Source: Candidatus Daviesbacteria bacterium RIFCSPHIGHO2_02_FULL_36_13 (GTDB lineage Bacteria; Patescibacteriota; Microgenomatia; Daviesbacterales; UBA10151). From it: a stretch of 64,000 nt of DNA. Positions 2,554-63,428 of the stretch are shown one piece after another. Position numbers and translations under genes: made by a program. Position 1 is the first letter of the stretch. Each line of letters opens with the position of its first letter. The DNA is taken from assembly GCA_001777015.1 (NCBI GenBank), contig MFCV01000044.1, positions 16,786-80,785 of the forward strand, read 5' to 3'. The notes beneath the pieces are model-generated. The model did no database searches, was not told the origin of the DNA, and was given only the letters and a program-made list of their open reading frames with translations.

Positions 2554-4146
2554 AAAATATTCCTTTTAGGACTGCTACTTCTCTCTCTTCTACTTTTTAA
2601 GAATCCATTCTCCTCAAACAATATTATTTCCAATTTAGAACCATCTCCTGATTCTATTCACTACCTAAACCCTGTGAAAAGTTTCACTGAGGGCAAAGGA
2701 CTTAATATTTCATATCAGGATAGAATAATACCTGCTCATGTCCCACCTCTTTATAGTTTAATTATCACTCCCTTTTATCTACTAACTTCCGACATAAGAT
2801 CTTTCTATTTTACTAACATTATTCTTGCTCTTATTTCCGCCATTTTATTTTTTAAAATTGTAACAGGAATTTTTAAAAGCAGAACAATTTCAATTCTTCT
2901 TTACCTATCGTTTTGCGCAAATTTAATCGTTTTTCTTTATCCATCCTTTGCCATGGCAGAAAACTTACTCATGACCCTTTATCTTTTATCAATTTGGCTG
3001 CTGATTAGACCGCCAACCCAAAAAACTGTCATTGCTTTATCATTTTTGGCAGTGGCGTTTTTTGCTACCAAATACGTGGCCTGGATTTTAAGTTTATCTT
3101 TAATTTTTATCACTTCTTTTATTGTTATTAAAAAAGCAAAGCATTTAACCTTAATATTGTTTTCATCTTTGATATGTTTTTTCTTAACCTATGTATCCAT
3201 TGAATATCTAACAAAAGGGTTAAATATCTTTGAAAGAATTACTGGTTCAATACCTGATGTATTTAGAGTATTTCAATCATTTTTCCAAACAGTTCCTAGT
3301 AATTTACCTAGGGAATTCTTTTCAAAAAATTATTTTGAAAATAACTTTATCCGCTTTTTGGGTGGTATCACAGGCGGACCTGCTGTGGTTGCAGGGGCCC
3401 ATTTTGTTATTTTACCAATTACTGTTGGGATGGTGTCTATCTTTGCAATCTTTTTAAATTTATTAAGCCCCAAAAATAGAATTCTAAGTTTTTATTTTTT
3501 TATTTCAATTTTGGCAACCATATATTACATCAGCACCTTTTTTGTAGCCGACTCCAGATACTTACTAGAATTTATTCCCGGCTTTTTAATTATCTTTGGT
3601 CTTTTTTTAGAAAGAGTCTGCAATTTTTTATACAAAATAAAAAGAGAAGTATATGCATATATTCTTTTAATCTTTTGTTGGATTTCTATTTTTTTTAACA
3701 CAACACCTGCTGTAGTAAATCAAATTAAAATTAATTTTTTTGGAACAGGAAAATCTGGAAATTACGAGGCCATCGAAACTATGAATAAATTTACCAATAA
3801 ATTGGAAGGCTCCAATAAACCAATTATTATATCTGTTTTATCGCCATATCAGATTGACTTTTTTTCAAATAAAAAATACGATTTGTTGCCCATTTCCAAA
3901 CAGCAATATTTCATCCCCAGCAGTCAAAACGTCTGGGGAATTGATTTGCAAAATTACTCTCTTTCGGACATTTATAAAGGCTTTTTAGAAAAAGGGAGAA
4001 GGGTTTATGTTTCAAATTATTTAACAGGGGAAAAATATTGGTATAAATTTGACCTTTTAAAAATTAAAGAAAACTTTAATCTAATATCTGTTTTTGACGG
4101 ATGCAGTAATCAATGCTCTGTCTATGAACTTAAACTCAAAAATTAG
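2548..4146 (+). CDS. Polytopic integral membrane protein with a C-terminal soluble domain; possibly a GT-C-type (ArnT/PMT-like) glycosyltransferase or pilus-associated membrane protein
   Basis: 532 aa with more than 10 predicted hydrophobic helices followed by a ~150 aa soluble tail. It sits between the pilin genes and pilD. The family assignment is a guess from architecture only. Confidence 0.35.
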   Translation: MQKIFLLGLLLLSLLLFKNPFSSNNIISNLEPSPDSIHYLNPVKSFTEGKGLNISYQDRIIPAHVPPLYSLIITPFYLLTSDIRSFYFTNIILALISAILFFKIVTGIFKSRTISILLYLSFCANLIVFLYPSFAMAENLLMTLYLLSIWLLIRPPTQKTVIALSFLAVAFFATKYVAWILSLSLIFITSFIVIKKAKHLTLILFSSLICFFLTYVSIEYLTKGLNIFERITGSIPDVFRVFQSFFQTVPSNLPREFFSKNYFENNFIRFLGGITGGPAVVAGAHFVILPITVGMVSIFAIFLNLLSPKNRILSFYFFISILATIYYISTFFVADSRYLLEFIPGFLIIFGLFLERVCNFLYKIKREVYAYILLIFCWISIFFNTTPAVVNQIKINFFGTGKSGNYEAIETMNKFTNKLEGSNKPIIISVLSPYQIDFFSNKKYDLLPISKQQYFIPSSQNVWGIDLQNYSLSDIYKGFLEKGRRVYVSNYLTGEKYWYKFDLLKIKENFNLISVFDGCSNQCSVYELKLKN

Positions 4147-15465: not shown

Positions 15466-16821
15466 ATGTATTCTTTCAAAGGGAAAAAGGTATTAGTTTT
15501 TGGCCTGGGATTAAATCAGGGAGGAGTGGGTTCAGCTAAATTTTTTGCTAATGCAGGAGCAGAGGTAAGGATTACTGATTTAAAATCCAAGTCTATCCTG
15601 CAACCTTCAATTGATCAGCTGAAAAGCTTCCCAAATATTTCCTACACCTTAGGAGAACATAAAAATGAAGATATTGATTGGGCAGATTTAATTATCAAAA
15701 ACCCAAGCGTAAAAAGGGATAATCCATATTTAGATCATGCTAGACGAAAAAATAAAGACATTGAAACTGATTTGGGAATCTTTTTTAAATTGGTTGATAA
15801 ATCAAAAATTATTGGAGTTACAGGAACCAAAGGTAAATCAACAACAGCATCCCTCATATATGCGGGGCTAAAAGAAAACAATCAAGACGTTGTATTGGCC
15901 GGAAATATTGGGAGAAGTGTTTTAGATTGTATACCTTTAGTTAAAGAAAATACTTTAGTTGTTTTGGAAATCTCTTCTTTTCAGCTGGAAGGATTAGCTC
16001 CCCTAAGAGTCTCTCCTAAATATGCAGTTGTTACAAATATTTTCCCTGACCACCTAAACGTTTATAAGGATATGTTTGAATATATCTCCGCAAAGAGATT
16101 AATTACCCAATTTCAATCTTCCAGTGATTTTTTATTCTTAAATAAAGATGATAAAACTTTAAATAACCCAAAATTTACTAGTGGCCTTTCAGCCAAAATT
16201 ATTTTTTACAGCAAACAGGATTTACCAAAAGATTTTAAACCAAACTTAATAGGGGAGCATAATTTGGAAAATATAGCAGCAGCTTTTGCTGTGAGCAAAG
16301 CTTTTAATATTGATGAAAATCAAATGCTTCAATCTCTTTCTAGTTTTAAAGGAGTGCCATTTAGGATGGAGTTAACTGGGCAGTGGAATGGCATCAAAAT
16401 TATAAATGATACAACTGCAACCGGTCCTGATGCCGGTATTCAAGCGCTAAATTCATATCCTAACTCTATAGTCATTGCCGGAGGAATGAATAAAAATATG
16501 CCTTATGAGGGTTATGTAAAAGTCTTGGAAGAAAATGCTAAAGAGGTATTTTTCCTAGAAGGTGATTCAGCAGATTTAATTATGTCGTCATTGCGAAAGC
16601 CGAAGGCGCGGCGAGTAGCGGAGCGAAGCAATCTCAAAACTCACGGGCCATATAGTGATTTAGAAAAATTATTAGAAGATATAAAGAAAATAGCCAAAGA
16701 AGGGGACACAATTCTTTTTTCCCCGGCAGCAACTTCATACAATTTATTTCAAAATGAATTTGATAGGGGAAGAAGATTTAATAAAGCAGTTGAAAAAGTT
16801 TTCGGGGAAGATATTTCTTAG
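15466..16821 (+). CDS. murD: UDP-N-acetylmuramoylalanine--D-glutamate ligase; carries an in-frame GC-rich ~55-bp insertion (LRKPKARRVAERSN)
   Basis: N-terminal KKVLVFGLGLNQGGVG (MurD-type) and P-loop GVTGTKGKSTTASLI. A TATAAT at 15453-15458 lies 7 nt before the ATG, suggesting a leaderless mRNA. Confidence 0.8.
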   Translation: MYSFKGKKVLVFGLGLNQGGVGSAKFFANAGAEVRITDLKSKSILQPSIDQLKSFPNISYTLGEHKNEDIDWADLIIKNPSVKRDNPYLDHARRKNKDIETDLGIFFKLVDKSKIIGVTGTKGKSTTASLIYAGLKENNQDVVLAGNIGRSVLDCIPLVKENTLVVLEISSFQLEGLAPLRVSPKYAVVTNIFPDHLNVYKDMFEYISAKRLITQFQSSSDFLFLNKDDKTLNNPKFTSGLSAKIIFYSKQDLPKDFKPNLIGEHNLENIAAAFAVSKAFNIDENQMLQSLSSFKGVPFRMELTGQWNGIKIINDTTATGPDAGIQALNSYPNSIVIAGGMNKNMPYEGYVKVLEENAKEVFFLEGDSADLIMSSLRKPKARRVAERSNLKTHGPYSDLEKLLEDIKKIAKEGDTILFSPAATSYNLFQNEFDRGRRFNKAVEKVFGEDIS

Positions 16822-42368: not shown

Positions 42369-43424
42369 CTAGCTTCCGTCCTTCCACAACCAAACTTGAT
42401 TTTTAAGTTGTTGAGTTAATTTAAAGCTATTAGCATGACCTAAAAAGCCTAAGTATGACTGTAGAGATTGATTAAAAGTATCTGAGTTTATTTTTGTTTG
42501 TAGTTTCTTAAACATTCTCTTTCTTGTCCTGGTTCTGGGTAAAATATAATGAGGCAATATGACATACCCTAAAAAATCAATTCCTTGAGTATATTTTCTT
42601 ATCTTAATTTTGTTAGGATGCAAGGATAGTTCAAGACCATTTTTTAGAAATTCTTCTATCCTAGGTATTAAGTTCTCCAAATAATCCTTATCCCTTGATA
42701 AAACTACAAAATCATCTGCATAACGCACGTAGTATTTAACCCTTAACTTATGCTTCATAAACTGGTCAAGTTCATTCATGTAAATATTGGCAAAAATTTG
42801 GCTAGTCAGATTGCCAATTGGGATACTTTTTTCTTCAGAAAAGCTTTTTAGAATATTTTCTAAAAGCCAAATTAAGTCCTTATCGTATATCTTTTTTCTA
42901 ATAAGACTTAACAAAATATTGTGGTCAACACTTGCAAAAAACTTCCTTATATCAAGCTTTAAACAATAACATTCCCCCTTATAATTGTTACTAACTTTTC
43001 TAATAAAAACGTTTAATCTTTTAACTGCTCTATGAGTTCCTTTATTTACCCTACAGGAATATGAATCATAAATAAAACTTTTATCAAAAAGCGGTTCAAT
43101 TGCAGACACTATGGCGTGATGAACTATCCTATCTTCAACTGTAGCCTTATGAATATTGCGGAATTTAGGATCATAAATGTTAAATGCCATATAATAAGCA
43201 TGCATATAAGTTTTTGTTTTTAAGTTCTCAAATAAATTAAAAAGATTATCTTCTAAGTTCTTTTCGAAAATTTGTACATCTTTCCTTCGCCTCTTACCCA
43301 CTTTAAATCCATTCCAGGCTTGAAATAGGCTCTCAATTGATATAAGATTCGAATAATCGAATCTTGCGACTTTGTCTAAAGATCCCATTTCCTCTGCCTT
43401 TTCAAATATTTTAGAATTTTCCAT
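42369..43424 (-). CDS. Diversity-generating retroelement (DGR) reverse transcriptase
   Basis: RT motifs 1-7 including YVRYADDFVV and the DGR-specific motif-4 signature IGNLTSQ (PIGNLTSQIFANIYMNELD). About 350 aa with no maturase/endonuclease domain. Lies next to a TR/VR pair. The longer ORF start (MGISKLYAVCVCVCV) is an artefact of the (CA)11 repeat; the real start is taken as MENSKIF. Confidence 0.8.
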   Translation of the reverse strand: MENSKIFEKAEEMGSLDKVARFDYSNLISIESLFQAWNGFKVGKRRRKDVQIFEKNLEDNLFNLFENLKTKTYMHAYYMAFNIYDPKFRNIHKATVEDRIVHHAIVSAIEPLFDKSFIYDSYSCRVNKGTHRAVKRLNVFIRKVSNNYKGECYCLKLDIRKFFASVDHNILLSLIRKKIYDKDLIWLLENILKSFSEEKSIPIGNLTSQIFANIYMNELDQFMKHKLRVKYYVRYADDFVVLSRDKDYLENLIPRIEEFLKNGLELSLHPNKIKIRKYTQGIDFLGYVILPHYILPRTRTRKRMFKKLQTKINSDTFNQSLQSYLGFLGHANSFKLTQQLKNQVWLWKDGS

Positions 43425-43472
43425 ATGGATACAAATAAACAAAGTTTGCCAGATAAATCTAGTAAAGATATT

Positions 43473-43494
43473 CACACACACACACACACACACA
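43473..43494. repeat. (CA)11 dinucleotide microsatellite in the divergent region between the DGR RT and avd
   Basis: cacacacacacacacacacaca read directly from the sequence. Confidence 0.9.
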
Positions 43495-43500
43495 GCATAT

Positions 43501-43839
43501 AGTTTTGATATTCCCATTTTTCAAAAACTATATGATTTCTATTTGCTCTTATACCAAAGCTTAAAACTTTTTCCCAAAAAGGATCGTTTTACTCTTGGAC
43601 AGAAGATAGACAATCTTGCTTTAATAATTTTTGAGCAGGTTTTTGCAGCAGGAACAACTACACCAGATAGGAAATTACCTATACTAGAAAAATCTATTGC
43701 CTCTTTAGATCTTCTTAAGATACTAGTAAGGCTAGCCAAAGATATACAAGCTCTAGATAATAAAAAATATCTCCAGCTAGAGCAAGCCCTGCAAGAAATA
43801 GGCAGAATGCTTGGTGGCTGGAGAAAATCTTTAAAATGA
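43501..43839 (+). CDS. avd: DGR accessory variability determinant (Avd)-like four-helix-bundle protein; start codon unresolved
   Basis: LYDFYLLLYQSLKLFPKKDRFTLGQKIDNLALIIFEQV and the following helices match the Avd/23S-IVS four-helix-bundle pattern (FPKxERFxLxxQ). There is no in-frame ATG: candidates are ATT 43510, TTG 43543, or the long TTG ORF from 43372. It is on the strand opposite the RT and target. Confidence 0.5.
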   Translation, partial: SFDIPIFQKLYDFYLLLYQSLKLFPKKDRFTLGQKIDNLALIIFEQVFAAGTTTPDRKLPILEKSIASLDLLKILVRLAKDIQALDNKKYLQLEQALQEIGRMLGGWRKSLK

Positions 43840-43870
43840 GCAAGCTCTCTTTCAGATAACAAGACCCTAC

Positions 43871-43995
43871 CACGGAAGAACGCCCACCCAAGTTCGGATT
43901 GTGATTGTCAGACTTCAGATTCCAATTGACGTTCAAGTTGCCATTCGAATTGAAGTTCGCATTAACGACCTTACCATCGTTCCGAGACTCAAGCA
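43871..43995 (-). repeat. DGR template repeat (TR), 125 bp, adenine-rich on the minus strand (Asn AAC codons)
   Basis: 125-bp near-copy of 44388-44512. All 16 differences are at TR positions that are A on the minus strand (T on the plus strand). In the target frame the TR encodes NANFNSNGNLNVNWN. Confidence 0.8.
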
Positions 43996-44296
43996 TTATG
44001 TTGCTTTATGCCATCTTTCATCACTGTAGCTAGAACTATTTCTTACTACTGTATTTCATTTGGGAGTACCTGCAAAACAGGATCTCCGCCAGCATAAAAC
44101 AAGGAGTGTCTTGTTTTTCTTATTGTACGCTTCCAAAATCCTTAGATTTTAGAATTCTGACAAGTTGTTTGAAAAACAACAATTTCAGTATCCTGACAAC
44201 AATATTGTTAGGAGTATTAACCTACTTTCAAAGTAAATATAAGCATCTGCTTCGCATTTCGCAAGAGGGTATTTTAGCTCGTACTAGCAGAGCTTG

Positions 44297-44318
44297 CCTT
44301 TTTCCTTCGGAAAAACGT
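44297..44318 (-). promoter_or_regulatory. Hairpin CCTTTTTCCTTCGGAAAAACG (7-bp stem, 4-nt loop) about 50 nt downstream of the target stop; DGR-associated hairpin or terminator candidate
   Basis: Inverted repeat read from the sequence. A second perfect palindrome AAAAGCTTAAGCTTTT at 44364-44379 lies 9 nt beyond the VR end. Confidence 0.3.
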
Positions 44319-44369
44319 AAAAAAATTCGGAAAGTTCAAAGGGGCAAAAAAGAACAAAGAATCAAAAGC

Positions 44370-45170
44370 TTAAGCTTTTTTCACTCCCACGGAAGAACGC
44401 CCACCCAAGCTCGGATGGTGATCGTCAGACTTCAGATACCAATGGACGCCCAAGTAGCCATCCGAATAGAAGTCCGCATCAACGACCTCACCACCGAGCC
44501 GAGACTCAAGCAAACGAGACCAAGTAGAACCTTGATCAAAGTATTCACCTGTTAAAAGTTTGTGATCCTGTGAAGCAATAATATATTCTGTAGCTGTTAA
44601 ACCTTCTCTATTCGCTTTTTTAAGTTGATCCTTTAGTTGCTTCTCAGTCGTATCAAGATATGGGGCATTAGTAGTGGCTTCTGTGTATCTCCAACCAGAA
44701 TGATCTACTTCATTAGTTACGCTAGTATTTTCTGCAACAGAATGGCTTTGCATAGCAGGCCATATTTTACCTAAAAGATGTCTTGTAGCTTGTGTGGATA
44801 ATTCAGTAGGAACAAATATAGGTCTGTCTCCTCTTAAGATGTGTTCATTTAAATCTGCTTGGCTACCTTCAAAAGCAGGAACTGCGATATTAAGACCAAC
44901 TTGCTCTCCCCGAACTCTCCATTCTAACTGCCAACTTGAAGTTACAGCCTCAGGAGTATTTAATCTTCCAGCTCTAAATTCAGCCACAACTGAAGCCAAA
45001 GGATCTTGTTCAACCAATATTTGACCATTTTCAGTAAACCAACCTCTTGCATTACCTCTACCAGCTCGTTTCATCAGGTCTTTTAAACCCTCTGCTCTTT
45101 TAACATCACCAGCATTAACTGCTGCTCGTCTTTCTGCACCAAGAGCGTTTTGAATCACTTCGTGTGTCAT
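44370..45170 (-). CDS. DGR target (variable) protein; the C-terminal VR-encoded region is presumably a ligand-binding C-type-lectin/FGE-like fold
   Basis: The VR occupies codons about 219-260 with a short invariant tail GVKKA after it. No obvious signal peptide. The fold is inferred from the DGR paradigm and not seen directly. Confidence 0.7.
   Translation of the reverse strand: MTHEVIQNALGAERRAAVNAGDVKRAEGLKDLMKRAGRGNARGWFTENGQILVEQDPLASVVAEFRAGRLNTPEAVTSSWQLEWRVRGEQVGLNIAVPAFEGSQADLNEHILRGDRPIFVPTELSTQATRHLLGKIWPAMQSHSVAENTSVTNEVDHSGWRYTEATTNAPYLDTTEKQLKDQLKKANREGLTATEYIIASQDHKLLTGEYFDQGSTWSRLLESRLGGEVVDADFYSDGYLGVHWYLKSDDHHPSLGGRSSVGVKKA
44388..44512 (-). repeat. DGR variable repeat (VR) at the 3' end of the target gene
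   Basis: Encodes the C-terminal ~40 aa of the 266-aa target (SRLLESRLGGEVVDADFYSDGYLGVHWYLKSDDHHPSLGGRSSV). The 3' 22 nt, CTTGGGTGGGCGTTCTTCCGTG on the minus strand, are identical to the TR and GC-rich (IMH-like). Confidence 0.8.
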
Positions 45171-63391: not shown

Positions 63392-63398
63392 AATGTAA

Positions 63399-63428
63399 AT
63401 TTCTAATTTCTAATTTCTAATTTCTAAT
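63399..63428. repeat. (ATTTCTA)4 heptanucleotide tandem repeat 8 nt upstream of the dnaB start codon, followed by TTAATTAG-type repeats
   Basis: aatttctaatttctaatttctaatttctaat read directly from the sequence. Confidence 0.85.

Follow-up and report, generated by a model that had tools for sequence, protein, structure and literature searches.

Diversity-generating retroelements (DGRs) of the Candidate Phyla Radiation (CPR) mostly share one arrangement. In the classification of Wu et al. 2018 (NAR 46:11, PMC5758913) this is architecture B3, written TR-(avd)-RT with the parentheses denoting the reverse strand (TR, template repeat; RT, reverse transcriptase), and it makes up 90% of that set's CPR DGRs. 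The stretch of DNA considered here consists of 64,000 nucleotides from contig MFCV01000044.1 of 'Candidatus Daviesbacteria bacterium RIFCSPHIGHO2_02_FULL_36_13' (forward-strand positions 16,786 to 80,785; hereafter the window). A complete DGR occupies 42.3–45.2 kb of it and belongs to B3 by the coordinates and strands of its parts. A run of CA dinucleotides lies near the start of its avd gene. Our reading, to which we give a probability of roughly 0.68, is that the locus is a standard CPR-type DGR with a slipped-strand switch in the coding region of avd.

The likeness to other B3 cassettes of the CPR extends to the order and strands of the genes (target gene with its variable region, VR, followed by TR, reverse avd and RT), the CPR host, the adenine specificity of the TR/VR pair and the possession of Avd. 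There is no architectural difference between these cassettes and the window locus. The original prediction for this DNA, made from the sequence alone, had described the layout as non-canonical; it is instead the published one. The inversion is also conserved in homologous loci. Among 28 loci retrieved by RT, avd lies on the opposite strand directly upstream of RT in all 22 where tblastn found it. The architectural point is textbook for CPR DGRs and unimportant in itself. Repeats or frame polymorphism in avd or RT are mentioned neither by Wu et al. 2018 (PMC5758913) nor by Roux et al. 2021 (PMC8144416).

The DGR of Bordetella phage BPP-1 (mtd-avd-TR-brt) offers a second comparison. In the Bordetella phage system, Avd is needed together with RT for cDNA synthesis. 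The window locus resembles it in the fold of Avd (TM score 0.83–0.88, root-mean-square deviation about 1.4 Å, 21% identity), in the SQ and YADD motifs of RT, and in a TR/VR pair with a GC-rich 3' boundary. However, the avd of BPP-1 is co-directional with TR and upstream of it, whereas that of the window is divergent from RT and antisense to a putative TR-RT transcript. We know of no repeat tract in BPP-1 avd.

Contingency loci and phasevarions, as found in Neisseria, Haemophilus, Campylobacter and Helicobacter, carry their tracts in the 5' coding region, for example of mod methyltransferase and surface-protein genes. The window locus is like them in having, just past the probable start, a unit whose length is not divisible by 3, frame-toggling polymorphism among near-identical genomes, and an intact open reading frame (ORF) downstream. 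Contingency loci control surface structures and methyltransferases, whereas the window tract sits in a component of targeted hypermutation, and its host is an uncultivated groundwater member of the CPR. Switching through a 6-bp tandem repeat has reportedly been seen in Salmonella mutL, and the two cases are alike in concept, since a slippage-prone repeat would reversibly modulate mutability in both. The mutL switch, however, is an in-frame gain or loss of a repeat and yields a general mutator, whereas the window switch would act by frameshift and limit mutability to the variable region of one target gene.

The CA tract and the start of avd

The plus-strand ORF at 43372–43839 matches the Pfam family bAvd (PF22296, E=4.5e-18, 66.1 bits against a cut-off of 40) from its residue 49 (codon ATT at 43516) as far as the stop at 43839. 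The original placement of Avd on the strand opposite to TR and RT was thereby upheld by profile search. The (CA)9 form of the protein, described below, also matches the NCBIfam equivalog NF033474 ('DGR protein Avd') at 82 bits (cut-off 80). An AlphaFold model of Avd (pLDDT 93.8) was matched by Foldseek to the Bordetella phage Avd structures 4DWL and 8UB7, with the TM scores given above, and to 2GSC (TM 0.9); the modelled protein adopts a four-helix-bundle fold like that of 4DWL. A fold search was needed because searches at the sequence level were weak or empty: phmmer with Avd found no match among PDB sequences, and a profile search against the PDB gave only weak matches to 4DWL and 8UB7 (E 0.13–0.9).

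The perfect (CA)11 reported at 43473–43494 in the original prediction is confirmed. It is the sole dinucleotide run of more than 5 units in the 64 kb, where 3e-10 are expected under a first-order Markov model. It is also correct that, in the window allele, no ATG precedes the Avd domain in frame. What had been missed is an out-of-frame ATG at 43425. The frame opened by this ATG crosses the tract and ends at a TAG (43500–43502), and the length of the tract alone sets it 1 nt off from the frame of the Avd domain. The tract lies 48 nt past the ATG (about 16 codons) and 15 nt ahead of the domain. Provided that ATG 43425 is used, as we infer, a repeat whose unit is not a multiple of 3 stands between the start of the gene and its domain.

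The allele of a second assembly of the same species bears directly on this start. Locus L029 (L numbers designate loci of the comparison), a 60-kb ENA contig found by exact look-up of the RT protein, carries (CA)9. Its called 136-aa bAvd begins at ATG 43425, has the N-terminus MDTNKQSLPDKSSKDIHTHTHTAYSFDIPIF and adjoins the RT start. We therefore take the 'missing ATG' of the window to reflect a gene that starts upstream of the repeat and is here out of frame, rather than an ATT or TTG start, for which the original prediction had listed candidates. ATG 43425 is likely to be the avd start, with the tract consequently translated and not, as had been supposed, part of a control region shared by avd and RT. 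The same prediction had considered a long TTG ORF overlapping the 5' end of RT. This 155-aa ORF is artefactual and stems from a frame that is open antisense to RT, and exact look-up of it returned no record.

The sequence around ATG 43425 fits the start contexts of this genome. TAnnnT hexamers resembling a -10 element stand 5–9 nt before the ATG of 19 of the 59 long ORFs in the window, against 4.9% of all ATGs (P=3e-11), and Shine–Dalgarno (SD) motifs are found in just 3 of 39 window genes. The enrichment of the former together with the rarity of the latter suggests that mRNAs are mostly leaderless or nearly so. Because SD motifs are so rare, a choice of the avd start based on them is inapplicable. 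Starts with a -10-like context include those at 2548, 12745, 15466, 19335 and 42350. The avd ATG has one too (Table 1), and it is probably the start used in vivo.

If so, translation of avd would begin at ATG 43425 within a leaderless-type promoter/start module placed back-to-back with the RT start. Because the unit is 2 nt long, slipped-strand mispairing at replication shifts the reading frame. With (CA)9 or (CA)12 the gene would be ON, its product being a full-length Avd (136 or 138 aa) that bears an (HT)n tail; with (CA)10 or (CA)11 it would be OFF and yield a peptide of some 25 aa in place of functional Avd. The window would thus hold an OFF allele, in which the avd ORF is intact 3' of the tract. 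Judging from the requirement for Avd in the Bordetella phage, the tract could switch mutagenic retrohoming stochastically, reversibly and in a heritable way: the majority of cells would hold the current VR, and a minority would re-open diversification.

Table 1. Features of the DGR in the window (positions within the 64,000-nucleotide stretch)
Feature	Position	Strand	Remarks
DGR RT	42369..43424	-	RVT_1 E=4.6e-28; IGNLTSQ and YADD motifs
TAGAAT, -10-like hexamer	43412..43417	+	7 nt ahead of avd ATG; leaderless-type start context
Proposed avd start ATG	43425..43427	+	adjoins RT ATG (43424-43422, -) as CAT|ATG
(CA)11 simple sequence repeat	43473..43494	+	perfect; avd 5' coding region; codes (HT)n if in frame
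Inverted repeat CATATAGTTTT/AAAACTATATG (I1)	43496..43534		perfect, 11 bp; flanks first Avd-domain codons
Avd four-helix-bundle domain to stop codon	43510..43839	+	Pfam bAvd, NCBIfam Avd equivalog, model and Foldseek
TR	43869..43995	-	127-nt repeat; same sequence in every assembly of the species
VR-TR spacer	43996..44385	-	holds promoter-like sites and a TA indel polymorphism at 44171
VR	44386..44512	-	direct repeat D1, 87% identical to TR; final ~127 nt of target ORF
DGR target gene, 266 aa	44370..45170	-	ORF; VR at its C-terminus

Tract length within species

Comparison of (CA)n length across assemblies, which had been proposed as a check, showed that it is not invariant. Nine assemblies of the window's species have identical flanks and carry (CA)9 (L029), (CA)10 (L031, L032 and L033) or (CA)11 (the window, L030, L034, L035 and L036). 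They otherwise differ by at most a few single-nucleotide polymorphisms (SNPs) and one other 2-nt indel. The window and L032, a contig of an NCBI metagenome-assembled genome, have 0 mismatches over 4.7 kb and are one CA unit apart; the window and L029 are separated by 4 SNPs in 13 kb and two CA units. In the protein collection the 136-aa Avd is found on 2 contigs and a 98-aa call on about 21. Lacking anything in frame farther upstream, the 98-aa calls begin at an internal TTG (43546).

The same behaviour is seen in two further species. The second is Shapirobacteria-like and was recovered from 11 JGI aquifer metagenomes (L078–L088), of which two carry (CA)6, four (CA)7, one (CA)8 and four (CA)9. 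The ATG of this species is in frame in the (CA)8 allele alone, where the product is MHTNKDIHTHTHTAYSSLDLPIF. The third belongs to the Levybacteria (GCA_001782165.1) and has (AGGAC)7, out of frame, on 4 contigs and (AGGAC)8, in frame, on 1 contig. Frame-changing length polymorphism among near-identical genomes is thus found in three species, and the same tract lengths recur in independent assemblies of different origin (ENA, JGI and NCBI). The suggestion in the original prediction that the DGR is phase-variable gains plausibility from this polymorphism, although the switch is now placed in the coding region instead of the control region.

The VR was compared in the first two species. In the window's species it is the same, at the consensus level, in all 6 assemblies that include it, so VR diversity is ruled out here as a sign of activity, and variants of VR within the population were not found at that level. 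The 11 assemblies of the second species have identical flanks and 7 VR haplotypes, the VR lying, in the direction of TR and target, some 415 nt upstream of TR. These haplotypes indicate that the DGR of the second species is active now or was so recently. Three of them are shared by assemblies with differing tract lengths (6 and 7 units, 7 and 9, and again 7 and 9), and the lone ON assembly has a unique VR. The sharing of VRs across tract lengths, the unique VR of the ON assembly and the invariant VR of the mostly OFF window species are all consistent with frequent switching.

Automated gene calls follow the tract. They vary with (CA)n and with open frames on the antisense strand, giving RTs of 382, 375 or 339 aa and Avd proteins of 98, 105, 136 or 155 aa. 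Surveys of DGRs that demand an intact avd or RT will consequently misclassify these loci. The 382-aa RT ORF, which runs from 43517 across the tract, was rejected as an artefact of an open frame on two grounds, the starts of relatives and the dependence of call length on (CA)n. The RT start candidates are ATG 43424 and ATG 43388. The latter fits the relatives better, in which RT mostly starts 2–8 codons ahead of the conserved N-terminal motif. ATG 43388 is preceded by GGCAGAGGAA, and a minus-strand TAAAAT (43413–43408), 19 nt upstream of it, overlaps the TAGAAT of avd. A compact promoter acting in both directions could lie here, at 43408–43417, between the two starts.

Repeats upstream of avd in related loci

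The comparison was extended to 53 distinct loci, drawn from 28 genome loci retrieved by RT (one genome per species) and 41 metagenome loci retrieved by the Avd domain; both probes are independent of the tract. Long repeats lie no more than 110 nt upstream of the Avd domain in 24 of the 53, against 9 in the other 277 kb, an enrichment of 127-fold (Poisson P~6e-42). The units are 1, 2, 4 or 5 nt long (C, CA, TC, CAGA/ACAG, AATC with 19 copies in L044, ACAGA and AGGAC/ACAGG), and not one of the avd-upstream tracts in the 53 loci has a 3- or 6-nt unit. Being read from repeats of these lengths, the N-termini of Avd homologues look odd and are unrelated to one another: (HT)n, (GQDRT)n, (QNRTE)n, (RQTD)n, (NQSI)n, SL and PPP. 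Unit lengths that are never multiples of 3, combined with unrelated peptides, point to selection on a property of the DNA and not of the peptide.

The position of the start codon differs accordingly between the two kinds of gene. All 25 repeat-less avd genes have an in-frame ATG, 2–16 codons ahead of the domain, compared with 11 of 25 repeat-bearing ones (Fisher P=9.5e-6). Every repeat-bearing avd has an upstream ATG whose frame is open as far as the tract, and the addition or removal of one or two units restores the out-of-frame alleles. Between tract and domain, an in-frame ATG was found in 0 of 14 OFF alleles. A -10-like context is present at 11 of 27 ATGs upstream of tracts, much as at the starts of repeat-less avd genes (11/25), the background being 8.2% (P=4e-6). 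In every out-of-frame allele the 109-codon Avd domain is a single unbroken tblastn match, which indicates that these genes are maintained and not decaying.

Public protein data carry a similar signature. Among the top 120 Avd clusters of the protein database, 25 are 5'-truncated calls that start inside helix 1, and several further clusters have N-termini from an alternative frame. Truncated calls are expected if OFF alleles are common.

Locus L016 has two copies of avd, each with a poly-C tract upstream (1545–1554 and 3959–3967). Repeats were also noted directly after stop codons, (ATGG)9 after that of RT in L007 (5019–5054) and G9 after that of avd in L028 (3624–3632).

Repeat tracts inside RT genes of sister lineages

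Most of the 9 long repeats found outside the avd 5' region (277 kb) lie in or beside DGR core genes. Four are internal to RT, in loci whose avd is repeat-less: (GA)20 in L020 (1318–1357), G12 in L021 (4552–4563), (AG)12 in L023 (4538–4561) and (AC)13 in L062 (1934–1959). One of the remaining five marks a second copy of avd. All four RT tracts occupy one position, the loop just ahead of the GxPxGNxTSQ motif, where the window RT has SEEKS. The reading frame of RT changes across the tract in all four alleles. For three of them (L021, L023 and L062) the RT was reconstructed by adding or removing 1–2 nt, which gave intact ORFs of 338–372 aa. A profile search with the repaired RTs found that 10 of 120 homologues have in-frame (RE)n, (TH)n, (LS)n or GGGG at this loop; these are ON alleles. 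A tract in the middle of RT is not explained by an alternative start or by an effect on a promoter, so that a frame switch is the most economical explanation for the avd tracts as well.

In a subclade with poly-C or (TC)n tracts (L009, L015 and L073, also L011), the only ATG of RT lies beyond the tract. The 5' coding ends of avd and RT consequently overlap in antisense and have one repeat in common. Both genes are in frame in L009, L015 and L073, and a single slippage event would shift both.

Alternative explanations

Phase variation of DGR core genes is the best reading of the position of the tract, the polymorphism in three species, the recurrence across the clade, the intact avd genes of OFF alleles and the tracts within RT. 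The principal alternative places the tract in a non-coding leader or bidirectional control region. Translation of avd would then start downstream at a codon other than ATG (ATT 43510 here, TTG in some relatives), and repeat length would tune the transcription of avd, RT or both through promoter spacing or leader structure. The tract does lie 49–106 nt upstream of the RT start candidates, and much of what favours this alternative also weighs against a coding-region switch. The window has a TATAGT-N6-ATT context at 43498–43510, that is, a TATAGT 6 nt ahead of ATT 43510, and in the second species a TTG stands precisely where the Avd domain begins; these make a repeat-independent downstream start of avd a live rival. 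The OFF frame is heavily dominant within species, ON accounting for about 2/26, 2/56 and 1/5 contigs. Moreover, the second species has its 7 VR haplotypes though in 10 of 11 assemblies the allele is OFF, the ATG being out of frame, which requires either bursts of diversification followed by lock-in or expression of Avd independent of the tract. A coding-region switch further takes Avd to be essential for the window DGR, as extrapolated from the Bordetella phage, and switching within a population to be frequent and reversible. The polymorphism is observed at the level of assemblies, and those from the same aquifer communities may be non-independent samples.

We nevertheless judge a non-coding role of the tract to be unlikely. 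The repeat-less relatives, without exception, use an ATG close to the domain, whereas repeat-bearing genes keep one only upstream of the tract, and that ATG has the leaderless-type -10 context typical of the genome. To our knowledge, leaderless initiation strongly prefers AUG. The repeat units are never multiples of 3, and the RT-internal tracts of sister lineages are unambiguous coding-frame switches. No minus-strand promoter-like site was found between avd and RT, which also counts against a shared control region. The repeat might, on another view, act at the RNA level. The promoter-like minus-strand sites lie upstream of TR, with none between avd and RT, so RT may be expressed from a long transcript antisense to avd, in which a (UG)n just upstream of the RT start would bind a protein or form a structure. 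Alternatively, transcriptional or ribosomal slippage might restore the frame, and the poly-C tracts of relatives could permit slippage of RNA polymerase. Such RNA-level roles seem highly improbable and are the least favoured of the explanations considered. The motifs differ widely by lineage (CA, TC, C, AATC, AGGAC and others) and vary in length, an Rfam scan of 41–46 kb gave nothing relevant and no family matched, the neighbouring hairpin is unconserved, and the length differences are seen directly in DNA. We also know of no role for dinucleotide repeats as productive sites of transcriptional slippage.

The tract might instead be a neutral by-product, expanded by slippage in an unconstrained N-terminal tail under weak mismatch repair, with the out-of-frame alleles being transient deleterious variants, decaying copies or assembly noise. 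The encoded peptides are indeed unrelated low-complexity sequences, and metagenome assemblies may get the lengths of repeats wrong. Across species, the share of in-frame alleles (11/25) is statistically compatible with the 1/3 expected from neutral slippage, a further point to be set against a selected switch. Neutrality, however, does not account for a 127-fold enrichment at one site, with most of the other long repeats in the 277 kb inside or beside RT or avd. Units of 3 or 6 nt, which a tolerant tail could carry without harm, are absent, and assembly noise is difficult to reconcile with identical lengths in independent ENA, JGI and NCBI assemblies. The avd domain is intact in every OFF allele, as are the ORFs of the repaired RTs, which argues for continuing purifying selection and hence for intermittent expression. 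We regard a neutral origin as rather less probable than a non-coding leader. The repeat-independent start and neutral slippage were given lower weight than a frame switch because 3- and 6-nt units are lacking, the proximal ATG is lost in just the repeat-bearing genes, the distal ATG has a promoter context, and tracts occur inside RT.

Other features of the cassette and the window

The remaining parts of the cassette conform to a DGR. TR and VR differ internally only at adenines of TR (A>G 9, A>T 5 and A>C 3), the VR forms the 3' end of the target ORF, and its own 3' end is GC-rich (GGGTGGGCGTTCTTCCGTGG) and resembles an initiation of mutagenic homing (IMH) site. The RT has the [I/L/V]GxxxSQ and YxDD motifs of DGR enzymes, and its nearest relatives are CPR DGR RTs with a neighbouring avd. 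The target gene product has no family match in Pfam or NCBIfam.

The spacer between VR and TR contains three minus-strand matches to the sigma-70 consensus (44264–44236, 44231–44204 and 44175–44146), which are consensus matches only and could direct transcription of the TR RNA. A 2-nt TA insertion at 44171 (within 44146–44190) is present in L031 and L033. It falls in the loop of a small hairpin (GTTGTTT/AAACAAC) and also in the spacer of a minus-strand promoter predicted upstream of TR. Of the three assemblies with (CA)10, two have this insertion.

The inverted repeat at the beginning of the Avd domain has a fold energy of -10.4 kcal/mol and yields TATAGT hexamers on both strands. It is species-specific, and was rejected as a conserved regulatory element because its conservation does not extend to relatives.

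Elsewhere in the window, a minus-strand ORF contains, at 760–867, 3.6 copies of a 30-nt tandem repeat (96% identical), and a heptanucleotide repeat, (AATTTCT)4.4, lies near the window end at 63398–63428.

Implications

A full-text literature search, which did not cover Paul et al. 2017 (Nat Microbiol), found no published report that combines a DGR with repeat-based phase variation; the papers returned treat the two subjects apart. Taken singly, the DGR, the B3 layout and phase variation by repeats are known already, and it is their combination that appears to be new. For a receptor or binding protein that is well adapted, mutagenesis without control should carry a cost, and a slippage switch on avd or RT would offer a simple answer to that cost at the level of the population.

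It seems slightly better than an even chance that DGR hypermutation is a contingency trait in a large clade of the CPR, with repeats recruited repeatedly to the 5' end of avd or to the loop of RT, and lineages flipping at random between 'diversify' and 'freeze'. If true, this would account for many truncated or seemingly missing avd and RT annotations and for 'inactive' metagenomic DGRs. It would also be the first genetic regulator of DGR activity to be described, and a second-order switch of evolvability.

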